A stretch of 64,000 nt of DNA from positions 7,372-71,371 of the forward strand of contig CAYNVS010000002.1 in NCBI GenBank assembly GCA_964400725.1. The letters run 5' to 3'. Below the pieces are notes generated by a model. It searched no databases. It was not told the origin of the DNA and saw nothing but the letters and a program-made list of their open reading frames with translations. The translations under genes and the position numbers were made by a program. Each line of letters begins with the position of its first letter. Positions within the stretch are counted from its first letter, which is position 1. The DNA is from an uncultured Myxococcales bacterium. Lineage in GTDB: Bacteria; Myxococcota_A; SURF-8; CAYNVS01. Of this stretch, positions 10,748 through 29,725 are shown piece by piece.

Positions 10748-10782
10748 CCCCTCTTTGCCGATCAAAGAGGGGCTTTTCGTTT
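10748..10782 (+). terminator. Rho-independent terminator
   Basis: cccctcttt-gccgatc-aaagagggg perfect 9-bp stem with 7-nt loop, followed by cttttcgttt. Confidence 0.7.
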
Positions 10783-10831
10783 GAGAATTTATTTTGAAAG
10801 CGGCTTGATTGTCGTGTATATTTTAACTTCA

Positions 10832-11284
10832 ATGCTGCGCAGAAGATTTATCGTTCCCTCTCTTGGGGTACTGTTCGCGCTGGCGGCGTTCGTCTATCCG
10901 CCTTCTCTTAACTATTTATGGACGTTTTTGCGCACTCCGTACGATTTGTTCGTCGCCGACGCCATGGGACTGGAGATGCTGGCGCTCGAAAAAGAGATTT
11001 GGGCGTTTTACGACAAAGAAGGAAAGTTTCCGATGGAGCCGCACGTTTACGCCTTAATGGCGGGAATGCAGCGGTTTGAATTGCCGCAGCCAAATACGCG
11101 GCTTAAATTCAAAACTCTCGATCCGTGGGGAAAGCCTTATTGTTACAGAAGACTGACGCGGCCGGAAGGGTACGAGTTGTCCAGTTCCGGCCCCGACGGC
11201 GTAACCGGCACGAAAGACGACGTTATTTTCAGGCGGACGACGGCAAACGGCAGGGACGAGCCGCAGTTTTGGAAAAGCCCATGA
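10832..11284 (+). CDS. Type II secretion GspG-like pseudopilin C-terminal domain protein (no canonical prepilin leader)
   Basis: C-terminal DPWGKPYCYRRLTRPEGYELSSSGPDGVTGTKDDVIF matches the GspG/pseudopilin signature (DPWGxPYxY...GPDGxxGTxDD). The ATG at 10832 is preferred over the TTG at 10781, which lies inside the upstream terminator. The N-terminus is hydrophobic but lacks a G/F(T)LIE prepilin cleavage motif. Confidence 0.5.
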   Translation: MLRRRFIVPSLGVLFALAAFVYPPSLNYLWTFLRTPYDLFVADAMGLEMLALEKEIWAFYDKEGKFPMEPHVYALMAGMQRFELPQPNTRLKFKTLDPWGKPYCYRRLTRPEGYELSSSGPDGVTGTKDDVIFRRTTANGRDEPQFWKSP

Positions 11285-11814
11285 AAACTAAAAACGAATA
11301 TAAAAAGATGCGCAGGCGGTACATCGTCAATAAACCGTTTCAATACCGTTATATATTGCGCATGCTGGCGCATCAAATCGCCGCCGCCGCTTTCGCCGGA
11401 CTTTTCGGCGTCTTTTTGGTGGTGTACGTCTTTCATTCGACGGCCGTAAGCGCCGGAGTTTGGAGAAACGTCGTCGCCGCCGGCAGCGTTATTATGCTGA
11501 CTCTGATTTTTTTAACCGCGACGCTGCGCGGCGTTTATTTGAGCCACCGCATAGCCGGGCCTATGAAGCGCTTTGAAATGGCTTTCGGCAAGGTTAAAAA
11601 CGGCGACTTCTCGATAAGAATAGAATTGCGCAACAAGGACGAAATGCACGATCTCGCCGGCGCCTTTAACAAAATGATGGACGAGCTTGACAGCCGCAAC
11701 TCCCTCATTTTGGATTATATGGCAAAAGCTAAAAAGAAAGCGGAGGACGGGGATAAGGAGGGATGCGTCCGCCTGATAGGCGAGGCCGAAGCCTTGATTG
11801 AAAAAACGGAATAG
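11281..11814 (+). CDS. HAMP-domain membrane protein
   Basis: The ORF track entry 11125..11814 has a long Arg-rich N-extension overlapping the previous gene. The start MKTKNEYKK at 11281 is more plausible. Two TM segments followed by HAMP (RIAGPMKRFEMAFGKVKNGDFSIRIE...LAGAFNKMMDEL). No output domain. Confidence 0.55.
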   Translation: MKTKNEYKKMRRRYIVNKPFQYRYILRMLAHQIAAAAFAGLFGVFLVVYVFHSTAVSAGVWRNVVAAGSVIMLTLIFLTATLRGVYLSHRIAGPMKRFEMAFGKVKNGDFSIRIELRNKDEMHDLAGAFNKMMDELDSRNSLILDYMAKAKKKAEDGDKEGCVRLIGEAEALIEKTE

Positions 11815-11833
11815 TCCATAAGACAAATTCGCA

Positions 11834-12472
11834 ATGAATCGACTGAAAATTTCATCTCGGCTGATCAGCGCGGTTGTAGTTTACGGCTCAATGCTTTTAG
11901 CGGCGTATTTATGGACGCGGCGCGAAGGCCGTTCCGATATGTTTTTCATGCCGGAAGCGAAGAACCCTTTTGCGCAGGCCGGATTCCATATTCATATTTT
12001 GGCGGGAGTTATCGCCGCGGTCAGCTGCGCAGCCGCGCTTTCGCTGCTTTCGCAAAAATTTGAGCGGCTGCGTTTGCTGGACGAATTTATGACGTCCATG
12101 GCGAAGGATTTCGGACGCGTCGAACTGGTTATAATTCTGGCCTTAGGAAGCGTCGTCGAGGAATATTTTTTTAGAGGAGCGCTGCTGCCGAGTTTTGGCA
12201 TAGCGGTTCAAGCGGTAATTTTCGGTCTTCTTCACGCCGGTCCGCTGCGTTATTTCAGGCTTTTGTATTTATGGAGCCTTATCGCGGCGGCTTTCGGCCT
12301 GCTGCTGGGCTGGCTGTTCATTTCCACCGGAACGCTCGCCGCGCCCATCGCCGCGCATCTTACCTTTAACGCAATAAGCGCGGTTCAAATACAAAAACGG
12401 GTCGCATCCGGCAAAGTGCGGGCTCCGGACGAAATTATCGCCGACATCGAACCGGACGACGACGACTGGTAG
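11834..12472 (+). CDS. CPBP-family (CAAX/Abi-type) intramembrane glutamic protease
   Basis: All three CPBP motifs are present: EEYFFRG (EExxxR), FGLLHAG (FxxxH) and AHLTFNA (HxxxN). Multiple TM helices. Acidic C-terminus. Confidence 0.8.
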   Translation: MNRLKISSRLISAVVVYGSMLLAAYLWTRREGRSDMFFMPEAKNPFAQAGFHIHILAGVIAAVSCAAALSLLSQKFERLRLLDEFMTSMAKDFGRVELVIILALGSVVEEYFFRGALLPSFGIAVQAVIFGLLHAGPLRYFRLLYLWSLIAAAFGLLLGWLFISTGTLAAPIAAHLTFNAISAVQIQKRVASGKVRAPDEIIADIEPDDDDW

Positions 12473-12865
12473 AGACGGCCTGCCGCGGCGGCTTGCGTTT
12501 ACGCGTATTATCCCGACTGCATTAGCGGAATTTTTAAAGTTCGTTGCAGCGCGGGCATTTATCAATCGACTGCCGCTCTTTCGCTTTCTTTGCGCTCCCA
12601 AAGAAAGGCCGGCTCCGCAAAACCGCGGCGCGGCGAACGGGCTTTGAAGCGCGGCTTTTCTTGCCGCAGCCCGCCCGTAAGCGAAGGAAGAATACGGTAT
12701 TAATTATAACTTCGCCTTCTCGGCGTTTTTTGCCAAAACTATAGATTGAGCGCGGTTTAACCGCAAATTAATACCGATATGTTTGCCGCCTTTTACAATG
12801 CGTGTTATCTTTAATCGGCAGTAAAATATGTATGTTGCGAATTTTTATGCAAAAAGGCGGATATT

Positions 12866-14941
12866 ATGGCAAATAGAATTTTTAAAACTAGTCGGGTAAA
12901 ATTGCCGAGCGCGCCGGTTATGTTTGTCTTCGCGGCGGTCTGTTTATTAACTCTTCTTCCCGAACGAAACGCCTCGGCGTGGGGCGCCGGAATGCACGCG
13001 ACGCTTAACGCCCGCGCCTACGAGCGCATGACTCAAAGATGGAAACGGGCGATAGACCCCGACTTGATTATTTACGCCGCGTGGACGCCCGACGCTTGGT
13101 ACATTCTCGCGGAGGAAATGCTCTCCGGATCGTGCGGAATAGCCTGCGGCGCCCCTGACGCCTCGATGAGCAACGAGTGTTTCAACGACTACATACCCGA
13201 CAGATATTATTCGTACACGCGGCATTTATTGGCGAACGCCGACGGATTGAAGGCAATATCGTACGCGCTGGGATACGGCGGACACGCGGTCGGAGATTAC
13301 CGCGGACATTTGGAATACATTATACCGGACTGGAGAGACCCGCAGGGCAACGGAACGATACCGATTTCGCGCCACACTTTCGCGGACAGCGTCGGCGATA
13401 CGCTTGCCTTCAACGTTGAGGGGCTTTACGGTTACCCGACAAAATACCTTACAGACAAAGCTCTTTACGGCTATCCGAGCGAAATATTAAGCGAAGCGAA
13501 CTACGCCTCGACCGGCTCGCGCAATCCGTACGGCGGATTGGTTTTAATCGTCGAGACAAACTACGCCGGAAAGCGCAAGGCGGTTTTTAAAGGAATACTG
13601 GACGAGACGGCGAAAGGATTGTCAATATCGTCGGTCGTCTCCATGATGGACGGTTCGGCGCTTAGTTCCGTTTCCGAGGGGCTGGTTGCCGCGCTATACG
13701 GCTTGAACGATTACGACGGCGGCGGCCGTCCCTTTCCCGTCGTCATAGAAAACGGTTCCGTCGCGATTAATTGCTCGACCGATTTGAAGCAGCGCATGGA
13801 GTCCGAGGCGGGCTTCGGCAATTCGATGCCGTGCCAGGTAACTTTGGCCAACGTAAGCGGTTTGGCCCAATGGACTAGTTTTCTCAAACCGGCGGGCGAC
13901 GAGGGACAGGAGGTTGTCGTTGACAAAGAAAAGGTCGCCGAATGGATGCGAAATCTCGCGGTTGAGTTCAAATCGGGCGACGTATATCTCGACGACCCGC
14001 ACGTTTTTCAAATCGACGCTCAGACCGGAAAATCGAAGGCCGACCTTAAGGGAATTGACGGCCGCAGTTTCACTCTCGGCAAAACCATGCCGGAGATACT
14101 GGACGAAGTTTTGGATAAAAATATACAGGATATAACCGACCGCCTATTGGAAAACCCCCACGTAATCGGCACGATTTTGCAAAGCAAGGCGGGCGCGCTG
14201 GACAAATCGCGATTCGTTTCCTTCGGCTTCCCGCTCCGTCCGCGCCTGACCGCTTGGGGGGCCGCGGTAAAATACAAAGGAGCCGACGTAAGAACGCTGC
14301 CGGAGGCTCCGGGCGTTTTCGCCGACTTTGAAATTCCGTTCGATATGAGCCCGAAGGCGGAGAACCTTGCGCCCGAAATGGTTTACCCTTATTACGTCGC
14401 CGTAATTCAGGCGGACTCGGCGAAGATGAAAGGGAAGGGAACGCTGGAAGCGGAGGTCGTTTACGAAGACGCTTCGGGCGCGGAGCTTGAAAAAAAGGCC
14501 TCGTTCTCGCTGAATCTCGAAACCGGCGAAATGAGCGGCGGGGAAGGATTCGCGAGCTTGGAAAAAAACGACGCAGGCTACGCCGTTAAAATTCTGGCCG
14601 ATAATTCAAACGGCGGCGGATACTTTTACGCGAAAGATTCGGCTAAGGCGGCGCTTGTTGTAAAGATTAAGCTGGCGGCAATCGACCCTGCAAATCCTCC
14701 GTACGATTTGCAGCTGAACGCGGCAGTTCAACCTTACTGCGAAAAGCCCGATTTGTCGAAGAGCGAAACGCCGTCCGCGGACAACTCGGCTTGTCCTCTC
14801 GCGGAGCCGAAGGCGGAAGAAAAGAAAGAAACCGGCGGCGGATGTTCGTCGAACGCTTCGCCGCTTTCGGCGCTATTTTCGGTTTTGTTGGCGGCCTTTT
14901 GCGCGGCGAGAGCCTGCTGGCGCCGACCGCGGGAATATTGA
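12866..14941 (+). CDS. Secreted zinc-hydrolase-like protein (S1/P1-nuclease or phospholipase-C-like N-terminus) with MYXO-CTERM-like C-terminal sorting tail
   Basis: The signal peptide is predicted to be cleaved before WGAGMHATLNARAY, which resembles the N-terminal Trp/His zinc site of P1 nuclease/PLC (WGxxGH). It is followed by ~600 aa of unknown domains. The C-terminus GGGCSSNASPLSALFSVLLAAFCAARACWRRPREY has the GC motif, hydrophobic helix and basic cluster. Confidence 0.7.
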   Translation: MANRIFKTSRVKLPSAPVMFVFAAVCLLTLLPERNASAWGAGMHATLNARAYERMTQRWKRAIDPDLIIYAAWTPDAWYILAEEMLSGSCGIACGAPDASMSNECFNDYIPDRYYSYTRHLLANADGLKAISYALGYGGHAVGDYRGHLEYIIPDWRDPQGNGTIPISRHTFADSVGDTLAFNVEGLYGYPTKYLTDKALYGYPSEILSEANYASTGSRNPYGGLVLIVETNYAGKRKAVFKGILDETAKGLSISSVVSMMDGSALSSVSEGLVAALYGLNDYDGGGRPFPVVIENGSVAINCSTDLKQRMESEAGFGNSMPCQVTLANVSGLAQWTSFLKPAGDEGQEVVVDKEKVAEWMRNLAVEFKSGDVYLDDPHVFQIDAQTGKSKADLKGIDGRSFTLGKTMPEILDEVLDKNIQDITDRLLENPHVIGTILQSKAGALDKSRFVSFGFPLRPRLTAWGAAVKYKGADVRTLPEAPGVFADFEIPFDMSPKAENLAPEMVYPYYVAVIQADSAKMKGKGTLEAEVVYEDASGAELEKKASFSLNLETGEMSGGEGFASLEKNDAGYAVKILADNSNGGGYFYAKDSAKAALVVKIKLAAIDPANPPYDLQLNAAVQPYCEKPDLSKSETPSADNSACPLAEPKAEEKKETGGGCSSNASPLSALFSVLLAAFCAARACWRRPREY

Positions 14942-15082
14942 TAAGATAATTTAAGCCGCCCGCCAACGAATCGGGCAAAACCGCCGATAAGCAAGTTTTA
15001 AGTAAATAAATGTTGTCAAACGCGCGTTTATATGGTTAATATAATGTTTCAAAGCGTTAATTTTTTCGTTTGAGAAAAAACT

Positions 15083-16165
15083 ATGTTGTGGCCGTTTAAC
15101 AGACAACGATTAAGCATTTATAAAACGAACCCCGAATTTCTCACTACAATCGTCGGCGACATGTGCCAGCGCATTGAGAATTTTCAAGGGTACGTTTCCG
15201 TCGTCGGAGACGACAAGAACCTCACAATACTCGTAACCGAAGGCAAACCGGTTTACAGCGCGCTTTGCACGATAAACGGAGAAATTCTTCCCCTTCAAAC
15301 CTGCTCGCCGGTCAACGCGCTAAAAGATTTCGGCGTTGAAGCGACGATACTCGTCATGGAGCTCGATCAGCTGCTCGCGGCAGTCATGTCTATTTTTTTC
15401 TCCACGCCGCCCGACATAAGCGCCGCGGGCGACGTCATGCACTATTCCACCGGGTTGGAAGCCGCCGCCGCGGGAGGCGAGCTGTTCGCGTTAAATCTGG
15501 TTCACGACGGAGTTTCTATGCCCGCCGTGTTCGAGCGCGGCAATCTGTCGGCTTGGTTTTACTTCGACCGCGAAAAGGGAGAATTCGTACAAACCAAGGA
15601 CGAAGCTCTCTTCAGAGGCTTCGTAGAGGCGAATCACGCTTCGTGCAAATTCGACTTTTACCTGGGAGCGGCGGGCGAGCCGAAACCGTTTGAAGTAAAC
15701 GAAGAGAGCGATCCGTTCATACAAACCGCGAAAACGTATTTCGCGCTTTACGAAGAAATACGACGCGTGATTATCCGCGCTACCGGCCAGCGCGGCAACG
15801 CCGAGTTCCAACAGATTTTAAACGCTTTCCGCGAAAAATACCCTCCTTTATATCAAGGGCTTTTCGTAAATCCGGAGACGAACGAAATATGGTGGGAACA
15901 GCTGCTTGAAAACCGGAAAAAAATCACGCATAAATTCCGCTACGATTCCTACTTCCTCTATTTGGACGAATTCCTTCTCACCCTCATCCGCAAGCTGTTT
16001 CAAACCGCCGGCGTGCAGGGAATAGTGGAAATTATCCGATTCCTAGACAAACGCAGAAGGGTCGAGTTCCAGCCTTCCTACAACATGAGCAAAATACTTT
16101 ATACAAAGCTCAATAATCTGCTCAGGCTGGACCGTTACACGAACGTCCAGCCCGCGGGCAAATGA
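15083..16165 (+). CDS. Hypothetical cytoplasmic protein
   Basis: 360-aa ORF with no recognisable motifs. Its stop lies 4 nt before ksgA, so likely co-transcribed. Confidence 0.5.
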   Translation: MLWPFNRQRLSIYKTNPEFLTTIVGDMCQRIENFQGYVSVVGDDKNLTILVTEGKPVYSALCTINGEILPLQTCSPVNALKDFGVEATILVMELDQLLAAVMSIFFSTPPDISAAGDVMHYSTGLEAAAAGGELFALNLVHDGVSMPAVFERGNLSAWFYFDREKGEFVQTKDEALFRGFVEANHASCKFDFYLGAAGEPKPFEVNEESDPFIQTAKTYFALYEEIRRVIIRATGQRGNAEFQQILNAFREKYPPLYQGLFVNPETNEIWWEQLLENRKKITHKFRYDSYFLYLDEFLLTLIRKLFQTAGVQGIVEIIRFLDKRRRVEFQPSYNMSKILYTKLNNLLRLDRYTNVQPAGK

Positions 16166-16169
16166 GCTT

Positions 16170-17042
16170 TTGCGCGGCCTCATGTCGCAGTGGCAAAATC
16201 CGATTGAAGTTTTAAAACATATCGACGCCCGGCCGAACGGGTCGCTGTCGCAGAATTTTATGATTTCTCAGGACGCGGCGCGGAAGGCGGCCTCGGAACT
16301 GGGCGGCGTCCGCCCCGGCGAAACCGTTTTGGAAATCGGCGCGGGAACCGGAAGCCTCACCGCGGTTCTTGCGGAAAAATTCCATAAAGTAATCGCCGTC
16401 GAAATAGACGCTCGGCTTGCGGCAAACCTTGCGGAGCGGTTCGAGGGCTCCAACGTCGAAGTTGTAAACGCGGACGCGCTTAAACTCGACTTTTGCCTGA
16501 CGGCGAAGGAAAACGGAGGCGCGATGCGGTTCGCGGGCAACCTGCCTTACGACGCATCCACGCCGATTATAGAAAAATTTCTGCGCGAAAAAGACGCCGC
16601 GAGCGGAGCCTCTTTTTTGCTGCAAAAGGAGTTCGTCGCCAAAATGACGACGCCGCCCGGCCGCAGAGAATCTTCGCCCGCCGCAATCTTTTGCGCCGTT
16701 TACTTCGAGGCTAAAAAAGGCGCGGCCTTTCCGCCGTCGGTTTTTACGCCGCAGCCTAAAGTCGATTCGGCCGTGTTGAATTTGTTTCCGAGAGAAAATC
16801 CGCTCATCGAAGCGCGGCCGCGGGATTTGTACAAACTGATTTACGCCGCCTTTTCCCGAAGAAGACGACTGCTTTCAAACAACCTGACATCCGCGGGAAT
16901 CCCAAAAGAGGCGGTCGAAGCGGCTTATCGCGCCGCGTCCCTGCCCCGCGGCCTGCGCGCCGAGGAAGCCGACTTTAAAACGTGGCGGGCTCTTTATGAA
17001 GAGCTTGAAAAGAGTTTGCCAAATCTTCCCTTCAGGCGGTAG
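16170..17042 (+). CDS. rsmA: 16S rRNA (adenine1518/1519-N6)-dimethyltransferase
   Basis: SAM-binding VLEIGAGTGSLT and the hallmark GNLPY motif. Whole-length KsgA/RsmA architecture. TTG at 16170 or ATG at 16182 as start. Confidence 0.85.
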   Translation: MRGLMSQWQNPIEVLKHIDARPNGSLSQNFMISQDAARKAASELGGVRPGETVLEIGAGTGSLTAVLAEKFHKVIAVEIDARLAANLAERFEGSNVEVVNADALKLDFCLTAKENGGAMRFAGNLPYDASTPIIEKFLREKDAASGASFLLQKEFVAKMTTPPGRRESSPAAIFCAVYFEAKKGAAFPPSVFTPQPKVDSAVLNLFPRENPLIEARPRDLYKLIYAAFSRRRRLLSNNLTSAGIPKEAVEAAYRAASLPRGLRAEEADFKTWRALYEELEKSLPNLPFRR

Positions 17043-17089
17043 CGCCTTATTTATCGGCGTCGGCTTTTTTTTGCGAAACGAGTTCATCC

Positions 17090-20000
17090 ATGAAAAAATC
17101 GCTGTTCATAATCGCCTGCGCCGCTTCAATCGCGGCGGCGGTCTCGGTCGGCGGGGGCTCGGAACAATCCGCTCGCCCGTTTATGCTTTACGACGGCCGC
17201 AGAATTGAAATGAATTACGTTTACGACCGCGTAAGCGTAATTTCGGAGGACGCTTCGGAAGAAGATTTGAGCCGCCGTTTATCGGAGATCGACGACCGCG
17301 TCGTTTCGGCAAAAAAAATAAACGGCTCCGGCGTTTGGAGCGCGGCTTTCGCCGAACCCCTGTCCGAAAAAAGCTACATTTCCGCGGTTTCCGCCTTATC
17401 GCGCGCGCGGGGGGTTAAAACGGCGCAGCCGGTTTATGCAATAGGCGAGAAGGCGCTCTTTTATCCAAACGGCGAATTGTTCGTCAAATTCAAACCGGGA
17501 ACTACTTTCAACGACGTTCTCGGCTTCGCGCAAAAGCGCGGACTTAAGCCTCTGAGCTCTTTAGACTTCTCTCCGTTCGTCCGGGTTTTCGAGCTCAAAG
17601 CCCCGTCGCAGCGCGCGCTCGACGCGGCCAACGGAGCGCATTCCAGCCCGTTTGTTGAGTGGGCTGCGCCTGAGTTCGCCCATAACGTTCAAAAAAAGTT
17701 CGTCCCAAACGACCCGTTGTTTCCAAACCAGTGGCATCTGCGCAACGTCGGACAGAACGGCGCGACCGCGGGCGCGGACGTCAAAGCCGACAAAGCGTGG
17801 GATAAAACCAAGGGGGAAGGCGCGGTAATCGCGGTCGTTGACGACGGAGTAGATTGCCCGCATCCTGATTTGGCGCCAAACTGTCTCGACGGATACGATT
17901 ACGTTGACGACGACGACGAACCGGCTCCGGGCGAGTACGACGGCCACGGCACTTGCGTCGCGGGAACGGCGGCGGCGAAAGGAAACGACGGGATAGGCGT
18001 TTCGGGAGTATGCCCGGAGTGCAAAATTATTCCGATACGCCTTTTGGGCGAATACCTTTTGACTCGGGACGAAGCGAACGCGTTCGTTTTTGCGGTTAAA
18101 AACGGCGCATGGGTTATTTCAAACAGCTGGGGCGTTCCCGACAACAACCGCGCCGCCGTCCCCATCCCCAAGCCGACCGCCGAGGCGGTAGATTACGCGC
18201 TTAATTACGGGCGCGGCGGGCTTGGAACTTTGGTCGTTTTCGCGGCGGGCAACGGCTCCGAGCCGGTAAATACGGACGGCTATCCGGCGTATAAAAACTC
18301 GATCGCCGTCGCGGCGAGCGACGATCAAGGAATCCGCTCGGATTACAGCGACTACGGCGCCGAGATAGAAATCAACGCGCCTTCCAGCGGCGGAATCAAC
18401 GGAATAACGACGGTCGATAACGCCGGCTCTTCGGGCTACTCTTACGGCGATTACGCGGACGATTTCGGCGGCACAAGCGGCGCGGCGCCTCTGGCGTCGG
18501 GCGTTTACGCGCTTATTATGTCGGCGCGCCCCGGCTTGTCTTGGAAACAGGTAAAAAAAATCGCCCGCGATACCGCCGACAAAATAGACGCGGCCCGCGG
18601 CGCGTACGACCAAAACGGCCGCTCAAACCTTTACGGTTACGGCCGCATTAACGCCCAAAAAGCGGTTGAAGCCGCCTTATTATTCGACGACGGCTGCGTT
18701 CCGCAAACGGAAATCTGCGACGCTCGCGACAACGACTGCGACGGCTTGAAGGACGAAGGGCTTGTATGCTACGTTTGCGCTCCCTCGGAAGAAATATGCG
18801 ACGGCATGGACGACGACTGCGACGGATACGTCGACGAGGACGGCGTCTGCGGGGCGGGCAAGGCCGGAACCTGCATGACTTGCGCGGTCAATTCCGATTG
18901 TTTTGAAGGCGTATGCCTTGAGCTGTACGGCGACCCTATGCACAAATATTGCGTCCGCAGGTGCAACCCCGATAAAACCTGCCCAAACCCGGATTTATAC
19001 GCCTGCAACGGCTCGTACTGCCTGCCCCGCAACAAGAGCTGCGACCAAACGCAGTGCCTCGGCAGACCGGAACTTTGCAACAACCTTGACGACAACTGCA
19101 ATTCGCGGACCGACGAAGGGAACGTCTGCTGCGTTCCTACCGTCCCGCCCGAAGAGATATGCGACGGGCTCGACAACGACTGCGACGGCAAAACCGACAA
19201 CGTTGACGTTTTAAAAAATCCGCCTCCGATAACCTGCCTTTATAAAGGCGTATGCGAAGGAACCGCGCCTAAATGCGACCAAGCGCTGTGGATTTGCGAA
19301 TATCCGCAAACCTACGAGCCTGAAGAAATATCGTGCGACGGGTTCGACAACGACTGCGACGGTTGCGTCGATGAAAACTGCGCGGCGCGGGACGGCGACG
19401 AAGAAGCGGAAGACGACGCCTCGGAGGCGGAACTCGACGACGACGACGGAGAGTTATTGACGGACGCAGACGAGGACGAGGCTCAAACGGAAGCGGACGC
19501 GAAGCCTGAAATCGAACCGCCGCCTGAAGAAGCCGCCGAAACCGAAAACGCCGACTTGGCCGACTTGGCCGACTTGGCCGACTTAACCGACTTCGACGAA
19601 GAGACGCTTGACGCGCCGGAAGAACGGGACGACGCCGAATTAGAATACGCCGATAACTCTAAGAAAAAATCATCATCCGACGGATGCGCCGGGCAGTCGG
19701 ACGGCTTCGCCTTCGCCCCGCTCGCAGTCGCGGCCGTATTGTTTATTTCGCGAAAAAAAATTTGCGCGCGCAAAACAAATAATATCTTTTGGGCGTTCGC
19801 CGCGGCGCCGGCGTTTTTCGCTTTCGCCTCGGCGTCGTGCGCTTCCGGTCTAAACGACGAGGCAAATTCTAGTTGTGAAATCGCCGTAACGTACGAAATG
19901 TACGAAAAGAACGTTTCGGTCGCTTACGCCGCGCAGAATCCTTTCGACAAAGAAGAAGCGGAAGTTTACGCTAAAATAAAACGTCCGGACGGCGCGGAGC

Positions 20001-21592
20001 AAAAACTCTCCGCGTTTTATTATCAAGGTTTTGACCGCGCGTTAAAAAACGGCTCGGAGGTTTTGACAAAAAACGGCGAGCCCCTCTGGAAGCTGCGGTT
20101 TACGCCGAACGCCGCGGGAAGATACGAGCTTTCTTTTTTCGTAAAAACGGCTTTGGGCGAGTCGTTTATTGAAAAAAGCTGCATTGAGGCGAAAGCTTCC
20201 GCCGAGCATAAAAAAGGGTTTGCGCGCGCAAGCGAATCCGGCGCTCGATGCGTAGAATTCGACGACGGAAGCTCTTTTTTCGCGATAGGCGAAAATATGG
20301 GCTGGTACGACTCCCGCGGAACGGCGGCGTACGAAGATTGGATTAAAAAACTCGCGGATAACGGCGGCAATTACATTCGGGTATGGATGTCGAGCTGGGC
20401 ATTCGGCCTTGAATGGACGAGCGCGGACGGCTCGGCGTCTCCCGTTCTCGGAAACTACTCGCATAGGCTGGACAGAGCCTTTCAGCTTGATTATCTTTTT
20501 TCATTGGCCGCAAAATACGACGTTTACGTAATGCTCTGTCTCGTAAATCACGGCGCTTTTTCAATCAACAACAATTCCGAGTGGGACGCCAATCCGTACA
20601 ACGCGAAAAACGGCGGTCCGCTCGACTCGCCGTCAAAATTCTTTACCGACGAGGAAGCGAAGAAACTGACGAAGCGAAAGCTCGATTATATAGTCGCGCG
20701 GTGGGGTTACAGCCCCAACCTGCTGGCGTGGGAGCTTTTCAACGAAGTCGATTTGACGGACAAGCCTAAAGCCGAGCCCATAGCGGCGTGGCACGAGGAA
20801 ATGGCCGCTCATATTAAAGCCGCCGACCCCTACGGCCATATGGTTACTACAAGCAACTCGGGCTTCATAGCCTCGCTTATAGGATTGGACGACGCTCTTT
20901 TTTCTCTGCCGAACATCGACTTTTCGCAGTTTCACATTTACGGATACGAAGGCTTCGACCCCGATTTCACCGCGGTTATACCTAATACGATAAACGATTT
21001 CGTCTCGCGCTTCGGCAAGCCGTGTCTTGCGTCGGAGCTCGGCGTAGATTACCGCGGCCCCGCGGAAACCAAAGCGCGCGATCCTTACAACGTCGCCTTC
21101 CACGATATTCTGTGGAGCGGCTTAATCGGAGGATCTTTTGGAGTCGGAATGCACTGGTGGTGGGATAACGTCGTCGATCCCGGCGACCTTTATTTTCACT
21201 TCGCGCCGATTGCTAAAATAGTGGAAGGAATAAATTTCAGCGAAAGCGGCCTGAAAAAAATAGACGCGCTCGCTTCGGCTGACGAAGACGCAAAGCTGTC
21301 GGTTTTCGCCCTTTGCGGAAAAAGCGTATGCCTGGGCTGGGTTAAAAACGCAAAAAACGTTTGGACGAACCGCGCCGACGACTCGCAGACCAAAGCTCTG
21401 ATAACCGGCGCAAAAATCGAGCTTTACGGCCTGGAAGGCGGGACGTGGAGCGTCAAATTCATAAACGCTTACGACTCGTCCGTCTCTCAGGGCGCGGCGA
21501 TTAATGTCGGAAGCGGCGGAAAGGCGTCGTTCGAGCTTCCTTCCTTCGTTCAGGACGCCGCGTTCCGCATGGAGAAAGGAATTAAACCGTGA
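17090..21592 (+). CDS. 1500-aa composite ORF: S8 subtilisin-like protease + MopE-type Cys/Asp repeats + acidic linker + MYXO-CTERM-like tail + signal-peptide-like segment + GH5-like TIM-barrel glycoside hydrolase (probable fusion or frameshifted pair)
   Basis: Signal peptide present. S8 triad motifs VIAVVDDGVD, HGTCVAG, GTSGAAP. Five CxxDNDCDG-type repeats (ICDARDNDCDGLKDEG etc.). Asp/Glu-rich linker with ADLADLADL. Then SSDGCAGQSDGFAFAPLAVAAVLFISRKK (sorting-tail-like), immediately followed by KTNNIFWAFAAAPAFFAFASASCASG (signal/lipobox-like). C-terminal domain has NGGNYIRVWM and LAWELFNEVD, resembling the GH5 NEP region. See the finding on the A8 tract. Confidence 0.6.
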   Translation: MKKSLFIIACAASIAAAVSVGGGSEQSARPFMLYDGRRIEMNYVYDRVSVISEDASEEDLSRRLSEIDDRVVSAKKINGSGVWSAAFAEPLSEKSYISAVSALSRARGVKTAQPVYAIGEKALFYPNGELFVKFKPGTTFNDVLGFAQKRGLKPLSSLDFSPFVRVFELKAPSQRALDAANGAHSSPFVEWAAPEFAHNVQKKFVPNDPLFPNQWHLRNVGQNGATAGADVKADKAWDKTKGEGAVIAVVDDGVDCPHPDLAPNCLDGYDYVDDDDEPAPGEYDGHGTCVAGTAAAKGNDGIGVSGVCPECKIIPIRLLGEYLLTRDEANAFVFAVKNGAWVISNSWGVPDNNRAAVPIPKPTAEAVDYALNYGRGGLGTLVVFAAGNGSEPVNTDGYPAYKNSIAVAASDDQGIRSDYSDYGAEIEINAPSSGGINGITTVDNAGSSGYSYGDYADDFGGTSGAAPLASGVYALIMSARPGLSWKQVKKIARDTADKIDAARGAYDQNGRSNLYGYGRINAQKAVEAALLFDDGCVPQTEICDARDNDCDGLKDEGLVCYVCAPSEEICDGMDDDCDGYVDEDGVCGAGKAGTCMTCAVNSDCFEGVCLELYGDPMHKYCVRRCNPDKTCPNPDLYACNGSYCLPRNKSCDQTQCLGRPELCNNLDDNCNSRTDEGNVCCVPTVPPEEICDGLDNDCDGKTDNVDVLKNPPPITCLYKGVCEGTAPKCDQALWICEYPQTYEPEEISCDGFDNDCDGCVDENCAARDGDEEAEDDASEAELDDDDGELLTDADEDEAQTEADAKPEIEPPPEEAAETENADLADLADLADLTDFDEETLDAPEERDDAELEYADNSKKKSSSDGCAGQSDGFAFAPLAVAAVLFISRKKICARKTNNIFWAFAAAPAFFAFASASCASGLNDEANSSCEIAVTYEMYEKNVSVAYAAQNPFDKEEAEVYAKIKRPDGAEQKLSAFYYQGFDRALKNGSEVLTKNGEPLWKLRFTPNAAGRYELSFFVKTALGESFIEKSCIEAKASAEHKKGFARASESGARCVEFDDGSSFFAIGENMGWYDSRGTAAYEDWIKKLADNGGNYIRVWMSSWAFGLEWTSADGSASPVLGNYSHRLDRAFQLDYLFSLAAKYDVYVMLCLVNHGAFSINNNSEWDANPYNAKNGGPLDSPSKFFTDEEAKKLTKRKLDYIVARWGYSPNLLAWELFNEVDLTDKPKAEPIAAWHEEMAAHIKAADPYGHMVTTSNSGFIASLIGLDDALFSLPNIDFSQFHIYGYEGFDPDFTAVIPNTINDFVSRFGKPCLASELGVDYRGPAETKARDPYNVAFHDILWSGLIGGSFGVGMHWWWDNVVDPGDLYFHFAPIAKIVEGINFSESGLKKIDALASADEDAKLSVFALCGKSVCLGWVKNAKNVWTNRADDSQTKALITGAKIELYGLEGGTWSVKFINAYDSSVSQGAAINVGSGGKASFELPSFVQDAAFRMEKGIKP
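19550..19594 (+). repeat. 9-bp tandem repeat (GCCGACTTG x3 perfect + 2 degenerate) encoding ADLADLADLTDF
   Basis: Direct inspection of 19550-19594 within the acidic linker of the 17090 ORF. Confidence 0.8.
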
Positions 21593-21855
21593 GCCGCTCT
21601 TCCGGCGGCCTCGTTTTGCGCTACGTATGCGTTCCGAAGGAGCGCGTGGGAATGTTTCACTTCATATGCGAGGGACACGACGGACTGCTTACGCAATCGA
21701 CTTTATGCGGCGATCCGTTTGTGCTTAAACTTAGGGTGGCGGAGGATATGCTCGAAGATTACGAGATATTGACGGCGGATTTAAAGAAGAAACTTTGCCT
21801 TGTTGAAATAAGCGAGGAAGAGGCGCTGCGCATTGCGGCTAAAAACGTCAAGTAG
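21589..21855 (+). CDS. Small DUF4911-like protein, translationally coupled (GTGA overlap) to the preceding gene
   Basis: 88 aa with RYVCVPKERVGMFHFICEGHDGLLTQSTL...VLKLRVAEDMLEDYEILTADL, resembling the DUF4911 pattern (x-P-x-EI-x-F...LEGYDGLA). Family assignment is from memory. Confidence 0.4.
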   Translation: MSRSSGGLVLRYVCVPKERVGMFHFICEGHDGLLTQSTLCGDPFVLKLRVAEDMLEDYEILTADLKKKLCLVEISEEEALRIAAKNVK

Positions 21856-22309
21856 CCTCGATTTCTTCTTTCGTCAAGCGCTCCGAAAGTATCGCGAGCG
21901 CGGCGTCGGCCTCAACGCGGACGTTGTATTCCCTCAAATTTTGGCCGTAAACTATAAGATCGTAAAGCAGGCCGAAACCTATAAAACCCAGCGTGAACAA
22001 AAAAAGAAATCCGCCTTTTCGGTCTCGCAGATAAAATCTGTGCGCTCCAAAAATTCCGGCGGAAGCCCAAAGCGTCCAAGCTCTTATTACGTCTTTGGAG
22101 CTCTCTTTAATTTTTTCGCAAAAGCTTGAATATTCCTCGTCGTTCATAAACGAAACCGCGTCGGAAAGCCATTCTTCGAGGCCGCCGGAAGAGCCGCGGC
22201 TTTTTAAAAACCGCTCCAAACTTTCGCGGTAGGGCGAGCTCATGCGGCGGGCTATTTGGCGCAGCCGAAAGAAGCGCATCCGAGCTCGTCGTAGCACTTT
22301 TTCAGCCAC
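21848..22309 (-). CDS. TM2-domain membrane protein
   Basis: GIFGAHRFYLRD plus a second hydrophobic helix is typical of the TM2 domain. Start uncertain: internal Met at 22279 or 22243 would remove the overlap with the downstream lipoprotein gene. Confidence 0.55.
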   Translation of the reverse strand: MAEKVLRRARMRFFRLRQIARRMSSPYRESLERFLKSRGSSGGLEEWLSDAVSFMNDEEYSSFCEKIKESSKDVIRAWTLWASAGIFGAHRFYLRDRKGGFLFLFTLGFIGFGLLYDLIVYGQNLREYNVRVEADAALAILSERLTKEEIEAT

Positions 22310-23145
22310 GAGCAGTAAATAATGTCGTTATCGTAAAACAGGTGGCAGCGGACGTTCTGATCGGGGAGCGTGGAAAGAAAGCGCCGGAAATTTTGCATGC
22401 GCGTTTTTTCGTTCGGGTCCGCGTCGGTCGTGCAGCAAATCGAGGCGGGCGACGCTTTGGAGACTACGCATCCTTTGCAAATATTCAGCCCGTAGGCGAA
22501 GGTTCCTCTGATTTCCGCGCCGGACTGCGCGTAGCCGACGAGCGTAATGTTGGCGCGCATTCCAGCCCACATTTCCTTGGGCGGATTGAGATTGGGCGAG
22601 TCGAGAATTGAGCTTATTAGTTTCGCCGACTGCCCGTCGAACAACTCGAAAGAAAGCGTCGAGGTTCCGCCGACGGGAACCTCGGCCGCAAGCTCGATTG
22701 TTTGGTCGGGGATGGCCGTCGTCGCCCACGTCGGGGGAGCGTCGTATTTTATTTCTATTCGGTTAAGTTTGACGACCTCGTCCGCGGGCTCCTCGTCCTC
22801 CGCCGCGCCGCCCACCCTCTCGGCGTAAACAAAAAGGTTCATCCCGTATCGCTTTTCGCCGTAATCAAACGAAAGCGCGTCGAACTCACCCTCCGCCTGA
22901 AAGTATTTAGCCGGGTCTTCTCCAGCCACGGGAACCGGCGCGCTGCAAACGTCCATGTTGTAGTCGTAAACCTGCTTGAGATTTCCTTTTATGCGAAGAG
23001 TAATTATTTTAGCGGCGGCTTCTTCCGCCGCCTCTTCGTCGGCGTCTCCTCCGTTAGAGCCGGTTCCGCCTCCGCCGCATCCCGCCGCGGCCAAGGCGGC
23101 CAGCGACGACGCAATAAAGAAAAATGCCAAGCGGTTAATTTTCAT
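22252..23145 (-). CDS. Lipoprotein, hypothetical (Cys-rich C-terminus)
   Basis: Lipobox LAAAGC after the signal peptide. Gly-rich linker. Eight Cys in the last 80 aa. No known domain recognised. Confidence 0.55.
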   Translation of the reverse strand: MKINRLAFFFIASSLAALAAAGCGGGGTGSNGGDADEEAAEEAAAKIITLRIKGNLKQVYDYNMDVCSAPVPVAGEDPAKYFQAEGEFDALSFDYGEKRYGMNLFVYAERVGGAAEDEEPADEVVKLNRIEIKYDAPPTWATTAIPDQTIELAAEVPVGGTSTLSFELFDGQSAKLISSILDSPNLNPPKEMWAGMRANITLVGYAQSGAEIRGTFAYGLNICKGCVVSKASPASICCTTDADPNEKTRMQNFRRFLSTLPDQNVRCHLFYDNDIIYCSWLKKCYDELGCASFGCAK

Positions 23146-23160
23146 TTGTTCCTCGCGCTA

Positions 23161-24906
23161 CTACATATTAAACGACTTCCTGAACTCCTCGACGGCGGCG
23201 TTTCCGCGTTTTTCTACTTCGCCAAGCAGTATGCGCGTTTCGGCGTTGAGCTTGTCGGCCGTCGAAGGCGTCTTAAGCGAACTCGTATTGATGAATACGT
23301 TCATCGCCGCGCCTTGAGCGCACGCTACGGCCTGAGCAGCCGCGACGGCCGCGTCCGACGCGGAATTTTTATTTCCTTTGCTTAAAACCGTCTCGATGCA
23401 GGTCATAAGTTCGCGGGCAAGACGGACGCTCTCCAACGGAACCTCGCTCGCCAGAACTGTCGCCTCTTCAATCGCGGCGGCGCGTTTGGCTTTGTCTTCG
23501 TCGCTCTCTTTGGGCAGCGCAAAAGCGGCCATAACCTTGTCGAACGCGGCGGTATCCTCGTCGATGAGTTCGACGAAACGGTCTTTTATTTTGTCCGCGG
23601 CTTCGGCTGTCCGCCTCATCAGCTCCTCGACCTCGACGTACTTCTTTTTTCCTACAGTCAGCCTTGCGACCATCGCGCAAAGCGCGGCGGCGTTTGCGCC
23701 CGAAAGCGCGCTTATCGAACCCCCGCCGGGAGCGGGCGCGTCGCTTGCCGTCAAATCTACGAACTCGCGCAGCTTCATCGATGCCAAGCGGCCGTTTTTG
23801 ACGCAGCCGCAGCATCCCGCGTCGTTTTTAATTTGGTATTCGATGATTTTTTCCGCGGGAACGAACGGCGCGAGGCTTGAAAGGCCGAGCGATTTTACCG
23901 CCGCGTCTATCAGTTCCTCTTCCGACGCCTCGGATGGATTGCCGCCGGCTTTCTCGACGTAGAATTTGCCGGCCAGAAGCAGAGCTTCCAGCGGTATGAG
24001 GCCGACCAGCTCGCTGCCCATCGTTTCCACTCCGCGCTCCGCGGCGAGTTTCTTTACCGTCTCGAACGCGACGTGCGGCGGCGTTGCGTTGTAGTTCAGC
24101 AGGTTCATGGAAACCTGCGTAATTCCGTGCGCCGAAAGCTCGATTCCTTTCGCCTGAGTCGCCGGAAGAATGCCCGGCTGACGCTTCGCCTTGCCGAATT
24201 CGTCGAGTATTTTATTCCCCTGCGCGTCTTTCAGGATGCGTCCGGACTCGCGAACCGTCTGCGCGATGTCGTCCGCCAGCGCGACGTCGGCGGTTTTCAA
24301 ATTAATGTTGTAAGCGATGAGGAAAAAGCGCGCGCCGGTAACGGTCGCGCCGGACTTGGCGTTAAAAACCGGCTCTCCGAAGTCGGGAGCCCATTCCGGA
24401 TTTTGCAGTTTTTGCGGCAGCCCTTCGTATTCGCCCTCGCGAATGGTCGGCAGTTTGACGCGGTCTTTCTTCTGCGCGGCTTCGGCGTAAAGGTAAACGG
24501 GAATTTTAAGCTCTTCGGCTACTCTTTTGCCGAGTTTTTTCGACAATTCCACGCAGTCCTGCATTGTAACTCCCTGAAGAGGAATGAACGGCACGACGTC
24601 GGTCGCGCCCAAACGCGGATGTTCGCCCTTATGCTTGGTCATGTCGATAAGCTCCGACGCCTTTTTTACCGCGTTGAATGCGGCGTTTACCGCCGAATCT
24701 GGGTCTCCTACGAAAGTTACGACGACGCGGTTGTAATCGCCGTCCGGATCGACTCCGAGCAGCTTTACGCCGCCGGATTCCCTAACCGCGGACGCTATCG
24801 CGTCGATGACGCATTTATCTTTGCCTTCAGAAAAATTAGGAACGCATTCAACCAGCTTCAGCATTATTTCCTCCGATGCGCGAGAATTAAAAAGAGCCTC
24901 TTTCAA
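23161..24906 (-). CDS. ftcD: Bifunctional glutamate formimidoyltransferase / formimidoyltetrahydrofolate cyclodeaminase
   Basis: N-terminus LVECVPNFSEGKD...HPRLGATDVVPFIP is the formiminotransferase signature. C-terminus DLTASDAPAPGGGSISALSGANAAALCAMV is the cyclodeaminase (FTCD_C) signature. True start is probably the Met at 24864 (MLKLVECVPNF). Confidence 0.85.
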   Translation of the reverse strand: MKEALFNSRASEEIMLKLVECVPNFSEGKDKCVIDAIASAVRESGGVKLLGVDPDGDYNRVVVTFVGDPDSAVNAAFNAVKKASELIDMTKHKGEHPRLGATDVVPFIPLQGVTMQDCVELSKKLGKRVAEELKIPVYLYAEAAQKKDRVKLPTIREGEYEGLPQKLQNPEWAPDFGEPVFNAKSGATVTGARFFLIAYNINLKTADVALADDIAQTVRESGRILKDAQGNKILDEFGKAKRQPGILPATQAKGIELSAHGITQVSMNLLNYNATPPHVAFETVKKLAAERGVETMGSELVGLIPLEALLLAGKFYVEKAGGNPSEASEEELIDAAVKSLGLSSLAPFVPAEKIIEYQIKNDAGCCGCVKNGRLASMKLREFVDLTASDAPAPGGGSISALSGANAAALCAMVARLTVGKKKYVEVEELMRRTAEAADKIKDRFVELIDEDTAAFDKVMAAFALPKESDEDKAKRAAAIEEATVLASEVPLESVRLARELMTCIETVLSKGNKNSASDAAVAAAQAVACAQGAAMNVFINTSSLKTPSTADKLNAETRILLGEVEKRGNAAVEEFRKSFNM

Positions 24907-25084
24907 ACTTTAAAACGTATAACAGTTTGACAAAAATCAGTCAATAAAACAAACCTAATCGCCGAAAAGCCGAAAAGGCGAAAAGGTTAACGGCCTTGAC
25001 AAATTGCGTTTTGCATTTTAAAAGATACCGCTTTTTATTGATTGGCATTATAATATTTGCCTGTTAATTAAACGATTAATAAAA

Positions 25085-27121
25085 ATGATTAAGAAAACGG
25101 CCAAACTCGGATTGATGGTCGGGGCGCTGGGCGTGGTGTACGGAGACATCGGCACCTCGCCGCTTTACGTCATGTCCGAAACGTTCTTCGGCCACTACGA
25201 TATGGAGCGTTCGCCCGAAAACATTCTCGGCGTTCTTTCGCTTATCTTTTGGTCGCTGATGATGGTTGTTACCGTCAAGTACGTCATGCTTATTATGAAA
25301 GCCGACAACGGAGGCGAGGGAGGAATTTTCGCGCTTTTAGGGTTGTTCGTCAAAAGGAGCAAAGCCTCGCCCGCGGCGGACGCAAACGAAGCGGAATCCT
25401 CCGGCAAAAAAAACGCGGCGAAATCGAATTCGATTTTTAAAAAGAAAGTAGTAATTCCGGAAGGCAAAAGCGCCGCAGAAACGGTTCATCCTTTCTTGAA
25501 ATCAATGGTTACAATCGCGATACTCATCGGCGCCGCGCTGCTTTACGGCGACGGAATGATTACGCCCGCCATTTCAGTTCTTTCCGCGGTCGAAGGGCTC
25601 AAAATCATCGCGCCCGGCGCGAAAGATTTAGTAATTCCCTTAACCATACTAATATTGTTGGCTTTATTCGCCATTCAAAAATACGGAACTCACAAAATCG
25701 GCTGGCTTTTCGGTCCGGCCATGGTGGTTTGGTTTGCGACGATAGCGGTGTTGGGCGTTTTAAACGTCGTCCAACGCCCGGCGATTTTAGCCGCCTTCAA
25801 CCCGATTTACGCGGCCGCTCTAATAAAGGCGCATTCCTACCATTCCGCCTTCATTCTCGGCGCGGTGGTGCTGTGCGTTACCGGAGTCGAGGCTATGTAC
25901 GCCGACATGGGGCATTTCGGGCGCGGAGTTATAGCAAAAGCGTGGCTTTTCATGGTTCTGCCGTGCCTGTGTCTAAATTATTTTGGGCAGGGAGCCGTGC
26001 TTTTATCGGGCAAGGCGATAGCCGAAAACCACGTTTTTTACTCGCTCGCTCCGTCGTGGGCGCTCATACCGGTGGTAATAATAGCCACGATAGCCACTGT
26101 AATAGCCAGCCAAGCCTTGATTTCCGGCGCGTTCTCTCTCACTCAGCAGGCTATGGCTCTTGGTCTGTTCCCTCGACTCAAAATCATTCACACAAACTCC
26201 GAAATAAAAGGACAGATTTATCTGCCGTTCATCAACGGAGTATTGTTTATCGGCTGCATTTGGCTGGTGTTCGCGTTTAAAAACAGCGGCGCGCTCGCGG
26301 CGGCGTACGGAATCGCCGTTACCGGAACGATGGTCGTAACCACTTTCGCCTTCGCGGTCATCGCCCGCACGGTTTGGCATTGGAAGCTGCGCATTCTGCT
26401 GCCGATAATCATACCCATTTTCATCGTCGATTTGTCGTTCTTCGGCGCAAACATGGTTAAATTCGTTGACGGCGGCTACGTGCCGGTCGTCATCGGGTTG
26501 GGAGTTTTTATAATAATGGACACGTGGCGGTTCGGGCGGGCGTGGATAGGAAAGATGTACCAGAAACGCCAGCCGGGCTACAACCTGACGGTCAAGGAAA
26601 TCATCGAGCATAAGCCGCAATACCTCGACATGGGAAACTCGGTGTCGCTGGTAGTCATGGCTTCCCGCCCTATTAACAACAAGGAAGACACCGTTCCGCC
26701 GGTGATGGCGGAGCATTACCACAACTGGAAGCGGCTTCCAAAGCACCTTATATTCCTGTCGATTATTCAAACCGGCAGCCCGTATGTCGCGGAGGAGGAA
26801 CGTTATAAAATAATAACCTTCTCTCAGGACGGCTACGGCACCGTCGTATCCGTCCAAGGCTATTACGGCTACATGGAGCAGCCGAACATCCGCAAAAGCC
26901 TGCTTGATTTAAAGCTTTCTCACCGCATAAAAATTCCGAACGAGCCTAAAAAGTGGCTTATTCTAATCGGCTCCGAGCGCATTGTGAGCAAAGGAAACGG
27001 CATAATCGAGCAGCTGCGCGTGAGCTTATTTTCCCGAATGAACCGCCTCGCCAAACCCATTACCGATTACTTCGGCCTAGAAACCGATTCCGGCGTTACG
27101 ATGGAGACGATTAACGTATAA
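25085..27121 (+). CDS. kup: KUP/HAK/KT-family potassium uptake transporter
   Basis: GALGVVYGDIGTSPLYV signature and 12-TM core, with a cytoplasmic C-terminal domain. Contains a ~50-aa Lys/Ala/Ser-rich insertion after TM2. Confidence 0.9.
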   Translation: MIKKTAKLGLMVGALGVVYGDIGTSPLYVMSETFFGHYDMERSPENILGVLSLIFWSLMMVVTVKYVMLIMKADNGGEGGIFALLGLFVKRSKASPAADANEAESSGKKNAAKSNSIFKKKVVIPEGKSAAETVHPFLKSMVTIAILIGAALLYGDGMITPAISVLSAVEGLKIIAPGAKDLVIPLTILILLALFAIQKYGTHKIGWLFGPAMVVWFATIAVLGVLNVVQRPAILAAFNPIYAAALIKAHSYHSAFILGAVVLCVTGVEAMYADMGHFGRGVIAKAWLFMVLPCLCLNYFGQGAVLLSGKAIAENHVFYSLAPSWALIPVVIIATIATVIASQALISGAFSLTQQAMALGLFPRLKIIHTNSEIKGQIYLPFINGVLFIGCIWLVFAFKNSGALAAAYGIAVTGTMVVTTFAFAVIARTVWHWKLRILLPIIIPIFIVDLSFFGANMVKFVDGGYVPVVIGLGVFIIMDTWRFGRAWIGKMYQKRQPGYNLTVKEIIEHKPQYLDMGNSVSLVVMASRPINNKEDTVPPVMAEHYHNWKRLPKHLIFLSIIQTGSPYVAEEERYKIITFSQDGYGTVVSVQGYYGYMEQPNIRKSLLDLKLSHRIKIPNEPKKWLILIGSERIVSKGNGIIEQLRVSLFSRMNRLAKPITDYFGLETDSGVTMETINV

Positions 27122-27157
27122 CGGTTAATTTCTAAAAAAATGCCGCGGAGAACGCTA

Positions 27158-29432: not shown

Positions 29433-29725
29433 GCCGCGGCATTAGTCAATGCAAGTCGCTTAACGAGTCCGTCAACGCGATCCGTATAAAGTTTTCTTAA
29501 TCCGCGGGACGGCGCGTTCGCCGCCCAATTGGATAACGACAATCTAGGCGCTTGCGAGCCGGGTTATTGACTTTCAATCCCTTCAAGATTTTGTTTTAAG
29601 GCTTCGGCGCGTCCTTCTACAAAAACGAAAATATGCCGCAATCGTTTGCGCGCTCGACAAGCGGTTCGCTTTGTGGTATATTCCTTACAATTTCTTCACA
29701 ATTATTAATCTTACGGAGACGCCGT

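Follow-up and report, generated by a model that had tools for sequence, protein, structure and literature searches.

This report concerns a single open reading frame (ORF) of an uncultured Myxococcales bacterium, located at 17090..21592 on the forward (+) strand of a 64,000-nucleotide stretch of contig CAYNVS010000002.1 (assembly GCA_964400725.1), hereafter called the window. It is one continuous frame of 1500 amino acids (stop codon included in the coordinates) and holds two modules, an S8-type peptidase with a Cys-containing sorting tail and a DUF5060/GH5-like lipoprotein hydrolase with its signal peptide. We consider it somewhat better than an even chance that this ORF is a real, lineage-specific in-frame fusion, in which the sorting tail of the first protein and the signal peptide of the second form a membrane hairpin. 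This reading is favoured because an independent assembler returned the identical sequence, because the other runs of eight adenines (A8) in coding sequence are intact, and because a run of nine (A9) at the junction would leave the second gene without a usable start codon. The event as such is of an ordinary kind, a gene fusion or a frameshift at a coding A-run; the twist is that two targeting signals stand back to back and that the second start codon is missing.

The run AAAAAAAA lies at 19753..19760 (+) inside the ORF and is read as cgA AAA AAA Att (R888, K889, K890, I891). The surrounding text is ...SSSDGCAGQSDGFAFAPLAVAAVLFISRKKICARKTNNIFWAFAAAPAFFAFASASCASG..., and the protein around the tract reads ...KKKSSSDGCAGQSDGFAFAPLAVAAVLFISRKKICARKTNNIFWAFAAAPAFFAFASASCASGLNDE.... 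A first-pass annotation of this DNA had reported an A8 tract at this site, had interpreted the ORF as two genes whose joint lies between a sorting tail and a signal peptide, and had left three explanations side by side: a genuine fusion, a sequencing indel in the homopolymer, and a phase-variable tract. The tract and the other features described are found where they were reported, and the joining of two genes is fully supported by the homologues of both halves. The three explanations can now be ranked, with the genuine fusion favoured, the indel disfavoured and the phase-variable tract lacking specific support. The consequence described for one extra A was reproduced as well: the upstream frame then stops after seven codons, at a TAA at 19780..19782 (+) that equally ends the -1 frame of the A8 sequence, and the upstream part comprises 897 amino acids ending in ...RKKNLRAQNK. 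Runs of seven or ten adenines (A7, A10) would extend the upstream part to 920 or 921 amino acids, respectively. Peptides that would be diagnostic of the junction are ICAR, TNNIFWAFAAAPAFFAFASASCASGLNDEANSSCEIAVTYEMYEK, or NLR/AQNK.

The upstream 890 residues make up an entire S8 peptidase, which has Cys-rich repeats and ends in a tail containing Cys. Translation of 17090..17158 (+) gives a putative N-terminal signal peptide, MKKSLFIIACAASIAAAVSVGGG. The Peptidase_S8 catalytic domain (Pfam PF00082, residues 242-518, 17813..18643 (+)) is recognized with E=4e-52 and 177.7 bits against a cut-off of 21.8, and the motifs of the catalytic triad, identified by eye in the translation, are present (D in VVDDGVD, H in DGHGT(CVAG), S in GGTSGAAP). 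It is followed by Cys-rich MopE-type repeats in four Pfam stretches (PF11617, E=1e-17, residues ~540-775, 18707..19414 (+)) and by an acidic low-complexity linker (residues ~776-863, 19415..19678 (+)), apparent from the translation. Tail alignment and hydropathy then point to a Cys-containing sorting signal of the C-terminal type, here internal, at 19679..19759 (+). It consists of DGC(866)AGQSDG, the hydrophobic segment FAFAPLAVAAVLFIS (873-887) and the basic cluster RKK (888-890).

A search of 5.8 billion proteins with residues 1-890 gave two matches that stood clearly apart from the rest, both from marine-sediment metagenome contigs: P0121 (946 amino acids, 50% identity) and P0122 (945 amino acids, 49%), with 85-86% query coverage. 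P0371, from the same kind of source, is a third close homologue (874 amino acids, ~50% identity). All three have the S8 and MopE repeat architecture in the same domain order, including the tail, but stop after it: a GC-motif, a membrane segment and a basic cluster are followed by 3-12 residues and the stop codon. The tails end in ...GGSGCAGGAAGGLWVMAAGLMIILRRKNAG (P0121), ...GGSGCAGGGLSGLWMVMVSLIIGFRRRRNA (P0122) and ...DGGCGVASGWSGVLASLLVVIGFLGRRKRWGRNVAKDVADS (P0371), and in P0121 and P0122 an acidic stretch ahead of the tail aligns with the linker of the window protein. Comparison of SSSDGC...FAFAPLAVAAVLFIS...RKK with five other tails (P0121, P0122, P0130 and two further proteins of the window) shows that the G, the C and the first basic residue (R) are invariant. 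The S8-type homologues end at the equivalent of residue ~890. As sequenced, this signal is not C-terminal, since 610 residues follow; a C-terminal position would fit only an A9 sequence or a -1 frameshift.

Regarding the other end of the protease, its N-terminus MKKSLFIIACAAS... contains a possible lipobox-like motif, IIAC, whereas P0121 and P0122 carry ordinary signal peptides. Because of this motif, the protease might be lipid-anchored at both ends before processing.

The downstream 610 residues correspond to a complete DUF5060/GH5-like lipoprotein, the homologues of which are ~600 amino acids long and stand alone. A lipoprotein-type signal peptide, here internal, is predicted at 19760..19840 (+) from hydropathy and from the alignment of Cys917. 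It has a basic n-region (ICARKTNN) and an h-region of 18 residues (IFWAFAAAPAFFAFASAS), followed by Cys917 (FASASC), which aligns with the lipobox Cys of stand-alone homologues and is trailed, 34 residues downstream, by a conserved NPFD. In these respects the segment resembles the lipoprotein signal peptides handled by Lgt and LspA. It differs from them in being internal, after 890 residues, instead of following directly upon a start codon, in lacking a start of its own after the tract, and in its deviation from the strict lipobox [LVI][ASTVI][GAS]C: the sequence reads S-A-S-C, with Ser at position -3 and not Leu, Val or Ile. A looser rule of the PROSITE type would probably accommodate it.

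The DUF5060 domain and a GH5-like catalytic module of clan GH-A occupy residues 918-1500 (19841..21589 (+)), as judged from homologues and Protein Data Bank (PDB) matches, and the hydrolase motifs NE (ELFNEVD) and SELG are present. A search with residues 838-1500 returned 741 homologues, the best with 569 bits and 48% identity. Among the top 120 the median length is 600 amino acids (range 498-797), and the N-termini inspected, the first 45 of these 120, are mostly signal peptides with a lipobox such as ...AGCG and the conserved NPFD ~32 residues on. The PDB entries 9gmj and 9gpc ('DUF5060 domain-containing protein') were matched with E=8e-85 over query residues 15-511; they and the ~600-residue lipoproteins, which occur in many phyla, resemble the module over its full length from lipobox to C-terminus, the highest identity of 48% being to a metagenome protein. 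These proteins stand alone with their own start, whereas the module in the window is the C-terminal part of a longer ORF. PF16586 (DUF5060) scores 21.2 bits at residues 935-1013, below its cut-off of 27.2, and PF00150 was not reported for the 1500-residue protein in the Pfam scan; hence, membership in GH5 proper rests on weak matches to GH5 mannanases (E about 1e-7).

Since S8-type homologues end at ~890 and the N-termini of the hydrolase homologues map to residues ~881-899, the coincidence of the module boundaries with the junction is far beyond chance. Residues 301-1500 of the ORF were scored against 1.84 billion protein representatives, and no protein with both parts was found among them; matches covered either S8/MopE (query residues 1-462) or the hydrolase only. 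Since no representative combines both parts, the two genes are joined here and only here. The alignments show two complete genes, of a tail-anchored protease and of a lipoprotein hydrolase, abutting to within about ten residues, a combination found in this ORF only.

The comparison of loci did not recover an ancestral two-gene version by synteny. In none of the homologous loci examined (P0121, P0122, P0001) do the S8 and hydrolase genes lie side by side: P0121 and P0122 are each followed by a small helix-turn-helix gene and no hydrolase, and P0001, the closest hydrolase homologue with visible upstream genes, has no protease upstream of it. A further hydrolase homologue, P0002, begins 70 bases from the end of its contig. 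The exact DNA pattern of the junction, with A7 to A10 allowed, gave 0 matches in metagenome contigs, a protein-guided scan of metagenome contigs for the junction gave only a 32% relative, and a scan of species-representative genomes gave no close relative, the best match being 39% for the hydrolase part. The window's GyrA (2539..5097 (-)) has its best non-self match at 73%, then matches of ~64% to proteins of Desulfuromonadales and Myxococcales. Judging by these matches, no orthologous locus was found because the lineage, formerly within the Deltaproteobacteria, is poorly sampled.

In the Logan assembly of SRR6476076, a contig of 28,090 base pairs (SRR6476076_44504) is 100% identical to window positions 11589..31855, including the A8 run, and the same 1500-residue gene is called in it. 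The match implies accurate short reads. A chimeric assembly at the A-run is ruled out by the same result, because a k-mer assembly cannot join at an 8-nucleotide repeat without spanning reads and yet reproduces the join. Further A8 runs at 18553, 25406 and 52151 sit in uninterrupted Pfam domain matches, and an ORF of 4143 amino acids that carries an A8 run is likewise intact. Since these other coding A8 runs keep the frame, the assembly shows no tendency to homopolymer indels. The A8 sequence is probably correct as assembled. The same species is present in other public samples, as indicated by identical proteins in JGI 3300010357, 3300020812, 3300021561, 3300022666 and 3300023203, in SRR21798932 and in GCA_030154545.1, yet none of those contigs reaches the junction. 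Exact look-ups of the 1500-residue product and of a neighbouring 297-residue protein gave no match, although both are present in gene calls, and a literature search for the accessions of the run and samples was negative.

Against this background the first alternative can be weighed, namely that A9 is the true sequence of the genome or of most cells and that A8 stems from an indel in reads or assembly or represents a minority allele. Two genes would then be present: the S8 gene would end in ...RKKNLRAQNK at the TAA at 19780..19782, and the hydrolase would start at ATT 19760 (MCARKTNNIFW...) or ATC 19784, coupled to the upstream gene. The 897-residue product would have the tail layout seen in all homologues, with N directly after the basic cluster, and extensions of up to 12 residues past this cluster do occur in homologues. 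Moreover, all homologues of the two halves are separate proteins, and homopolymers are the classic site of indel errors. On the other side stand the identical sequence from a second assembler, the other coding A8 runs, all of which are in frame, and the circumstance that an A9 would be the sole coding run longer than eight in the window. We regard this alternative as unlikely, and a further point against it is the lack of ATG, GTG or TTG for the second gene.

This point deserves a closer look. In an A9 genome, the hydrolase frame upstream of the tract contains no ATG, GTG or TTG as far as the preceding stop at 19641. In frame after the tract only ATT 19760 and ATC 19784 are found. In Escherichia coli, near-cognate starts of this kind reach at most about one per cent of the efficiency of AUG, which counts against the two-gene layout. 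Exported proteins in the window start with ATG AAA AAA or similar (e.g. ATGAAAAAATCG for the 1500-residue ORF itself). Because the hydrolase would be left without an ordinary start, an A9 run is disfavoured as the true sequence and likewise as the recent ancestral state. A run of A7 was also considered; it gives an ATG at 19684, but needs a gene overlap of 170 nucleotides and a tail extension of 31 residues, and was judged unlikely.

The first-pass annotation had stated that the downstream module has no canonical in-frame start before its signal-like segment. This is true of the sequence after the tract; ahead of the segment there is a TTG at 19739..19741 (+), which encodes the L of LFISRKK inside the membrane segment of the tail and is out of frame in an A9 genome. 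It may be asked whether the sequence is real and the hydrolase is made mainly by internal initiation at this TTG (MFISRKKICARKTNNIFW...), while the read-through fusion would be formed in small amounts or be unstable, as a side product of a protease gene without a stop. The codon is the only canonical in-frame start, the resulting signal peptide would have an acceptable length (33 residues through the lipobox Cys) and a basic n-region, and many genes in the window have no clear Shine-Dalgarno motif. Nevertheless, no Shine-Dalgarno motif is found upstream of TTG 19739, elongating ribosomes would hinder initiation at a site inside a translated ORF, and the end of the protease gene would be left unexplained. 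This explanation appears very unlikely to us.

The A8 tract itself had been singled out earlier as a notable feature, and this view is not supported: the tract results from the coding of a Lys-Lys pair as AAA AAA within a basic cluster and is statistically unremarkable in this genome. The window contains 10 A/T runs of exactly 8 nucleotides and one T10, compared with 0.8 expected from a mononucleotide shuffle, and A/T runs of at least 8 are about 13 times commoner than such a shuffle predicts. Three of the 8-nucleotide runs are in the 1500-residue ORF. In its two modules, the lysine codons AAA and AAG are used in ratios of 32:11 and 32:9, that is, AAA three to four times as often. The frequency of A8 runs is explained by this bias, because every Lys-Lys pair with an A beside it forms such a run; and sorting tails and the n-regions of signal peptides consist of basic clusters. 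Other carriers of A8 runs are ordinary genes, encoding a Kup transporter, a histidine kinase and the S8 domain itself. The lengths of A/T runs decay geometrically with a ratio of ~0.37 up to 8 (24 runs of 7, 10 of 8), and no run of 9 was observed where about four were expected. This suggests that runs longer than 8 are avoided and that runs of 8 are tolerated as being stable. The single T10 (51102..51111) lies outside long ORFs and forms the loop of a GGCGC/GCGCC inverted repeat.

These statistics bear on a further alternative, in which the A8 run is a switch or recoding site that sets the ratio of precursor to protease alone, be it by DNA slippage (A8/A9 phase variation), by slippage of RNA polymerase or by -1 frameshifting. 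The tract cgA AAA AAA att is in the right register for a -1 shift (A_AAA_AAA), in agreement with the X_XXY_YYZ heptamer pattern, the shifted frame ends after seven codons, and the lack of a start of its own after the tract would render expression of the hydrolase frame-dependent. A -1 site with a nearby stop formally resembles dnaX. The window shares the in-register A-run and the nearby shifted stop with dnaX-type frameshifting at A_AAA_AAG, with transcriptional slippage at A9 and with contingency loci. It differs from these systems in that the run is just 8 nucleotides long and comes without a stimulatory structure or conservation: the predicted fold of 19745-19870 is not significant (z = -0.74), there is no Rfam match and no motif of the Shine-Dalgarno type upstream, and the searches found no relatives with the junction that could show conservation. 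Furthermore, A8 runs are frequent in ordinary genes here, and coding runs stop at exactly 8, with none of 9 where about 4 would be expected. The sole other assembly that covers the tract is identical there, and no meaningful promoter or terminator was found at the joint. Hence a switch or recoding function seems highly improbable.

Returning to the in-frame fusion, its joint falls exactly between the RKK of the tail and the basic n-region of the lipoprotein signal peptide, and stop, spacer and second start codon are all absent. We infer that it may have arisen by a small deletion between two A-runs, one in the tail (CGA AAA AAA) and one in a start of the MKK type that is typical of this genome (ATG AAA AAA ATT). 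Everything from the last part of the tail through stop and spacer to the ATG would be lost in such a deletion, which needs no odd start codon. Alternatively, one A may have been lost from an A9.

A possible topology follows from hydropathy. Two hydrophobic segments (873-887 and 899-916, of 15-18 residues) flank the stretch RKKICARKTNN, which has 5 basic and 0 acidic residues, and the hairpin that they would form is self-consistent as a prediction. In this scheme, the N-terminal signal peptide would start Sec export of the protease part, the hydrophobic segment 873-887 of the tail would stop transfer, the loop RKKICARKTNN would stay in the cytoplasm according to the positive-inside rule, and segment 899-916 would restart translocation. 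Both catalytic modules would thereby be placed outside, joined by the membrane hairpin. The catalytic motifs of both enzymes are intact, and so, presumably, are both processing motifs, Cys866 for a sorting protease of the CPBP type and Cys917 for Lgt/LspA. Cleavage of the precursor may therefore still yield both original proteins in mature form, in which case the fusion would be nearly neutral. If a few per cent of ribosomes or transcripts slipped on A_AAA_AAA, protease with a normal end would be made as well; at slippery heptamers, unprogrammed slippage is likely to give a minor share of such protease-only product. That a short extension after a sorting tail is tolerated is indicated by TraA with a FLAG tag after MYXO-CTERM, which is still cleaved by MrtX (PMC11980579).

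A bolder and in our view quite unlikely version is a two-enzyme surface 'polyprotein', in which a CPBP-type sortase would cut at Cys866 and Lgt/LspA at Cys917, releasing a lipid-anchored protease and a lipid-anchored glycosidase in a 1:1 ratio and leaving a hairpin of ~50 residues in the membrane. Slippage at the A8 run might optionally tune this ratio, as the second enzyme lacks its own start codon.

Several observations weigh against a real fusion with a hairpin and account for our reserve. The Logan contig possibly derives from the window's own reads and would then add another assembler but no further sample. The -1 frame reaches its stop after seven codons and begins with N, like the tails of homologues (RRK-NAG and RRRR-NA, each followed by a stop), and such a short frame starting with N is what a true A9 would predict, even though the chance of a stop within 8 out-of-frame codons is roughly 0.3 anyway. 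Being unique, the fusion is untested by selection over time. No verified precedent exists for a lipobox processed inside a protein, or for a sorting tail processed with 610 residues behind it. Finally, the S8 tail, with either ending, has no match to curated sorting-domain hidden Markov models; since none of these models is reached, the tail is given no named family and is considered to work like the class of Cys-type sorting signals on the strength of its layout.

The known members of this class (MYXO-CTERM, Synerg-CTERM, JDVT-CTERM and CGP-CTERM) combine a tripartite arrangement of a Cys-containing signature, a membrane helix and a basic cluster, and are cut by myxosortases of the CPBP family (Haft 2023 preprint, 10.1101/2023.06.07.544157; Guo, Haft and Wall 2025, PMC11980579). 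Like these signals, the tail in the window begins with a short Gly/Ser-rich motif with Cys (SSSDGC), to which a hydrophobic segment and then a basic cluster are joined, and it belongs to a secreted enzyme in which an acidic or disordered linker precedes it. Unlike them, it is internal, and its basic cluster is Lys-rich and not Arg-rich.

A candidate sorting system of the Cys type is present elsewhere in the window, at 10781..14941 (+) and 55797..57701 (-). A GspG-like pseudopilin gene (10781..11281 (+)) adjoins the first Cys-tail protein. A CPBP/Rce1-like intramembrane protease (PF02517) is encoded at 11834..12469 (+); within the 64-kb window it is the putative sorting protease, and it scores below threshold for every named myxosortase family (MrtJ 21.8 vs 75). 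The first Cys-tail protein (12866..14941 (+), 691 amino acids) ends, as read from the translation, in ...GGGCSS...CWRRPREY. The second (55797..57701 (-), 634 amino acids) ends in ...SSGGCAAGC...AARRRF, and its tail, scanned alone, matches TIGR04564 (Synerg-CTERM) with 25.6 vs 22.5 bits.

Immediately downstream of the 1500-residue ORF lies a small DUF4911-like gene (21589..21855 (+)). If it starts at GTG 21589 (88 amino acids), it overlaps the stop of the ORF by 4 nucleotides; the start is ambiguous, as public gene calls also use TTG 21616 (79 amino acids). Further along the window, 31277..43705 (+) holds 4143 codons in an uninterrupted, internally repetitive frame, and repeated SRRVSSGVSRGNYYVFGSFALRTRR segments show up in its antisense frames. 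At 59136..62399 (-), a protein of 1088 amino acids shows an unusual pairing of PPDK_N (the ATP-binding domain of pyruvate phosphate dikinase) with a C-terminal nucleotidyltransferase of the Pol-beta type.

If the joint turns out to be an indel or a polymorphism, the finding merely flags one base in a metagenome-assembled genome. For annotators, the locus shows how two genes of exported proteins that are joined at their targeting signals can be recognized, and that coding, and not a switch, can account for a long A-run at a joint of this kind. If the fusion is real and both halves are released, a C-terminal sorting signal and a lipoprotein signal peptide would work in internal positions. In that case, this protein would constitute a natural test of the position-dependence of the processing enzymes and a possible design for the co-display of two enzymes.

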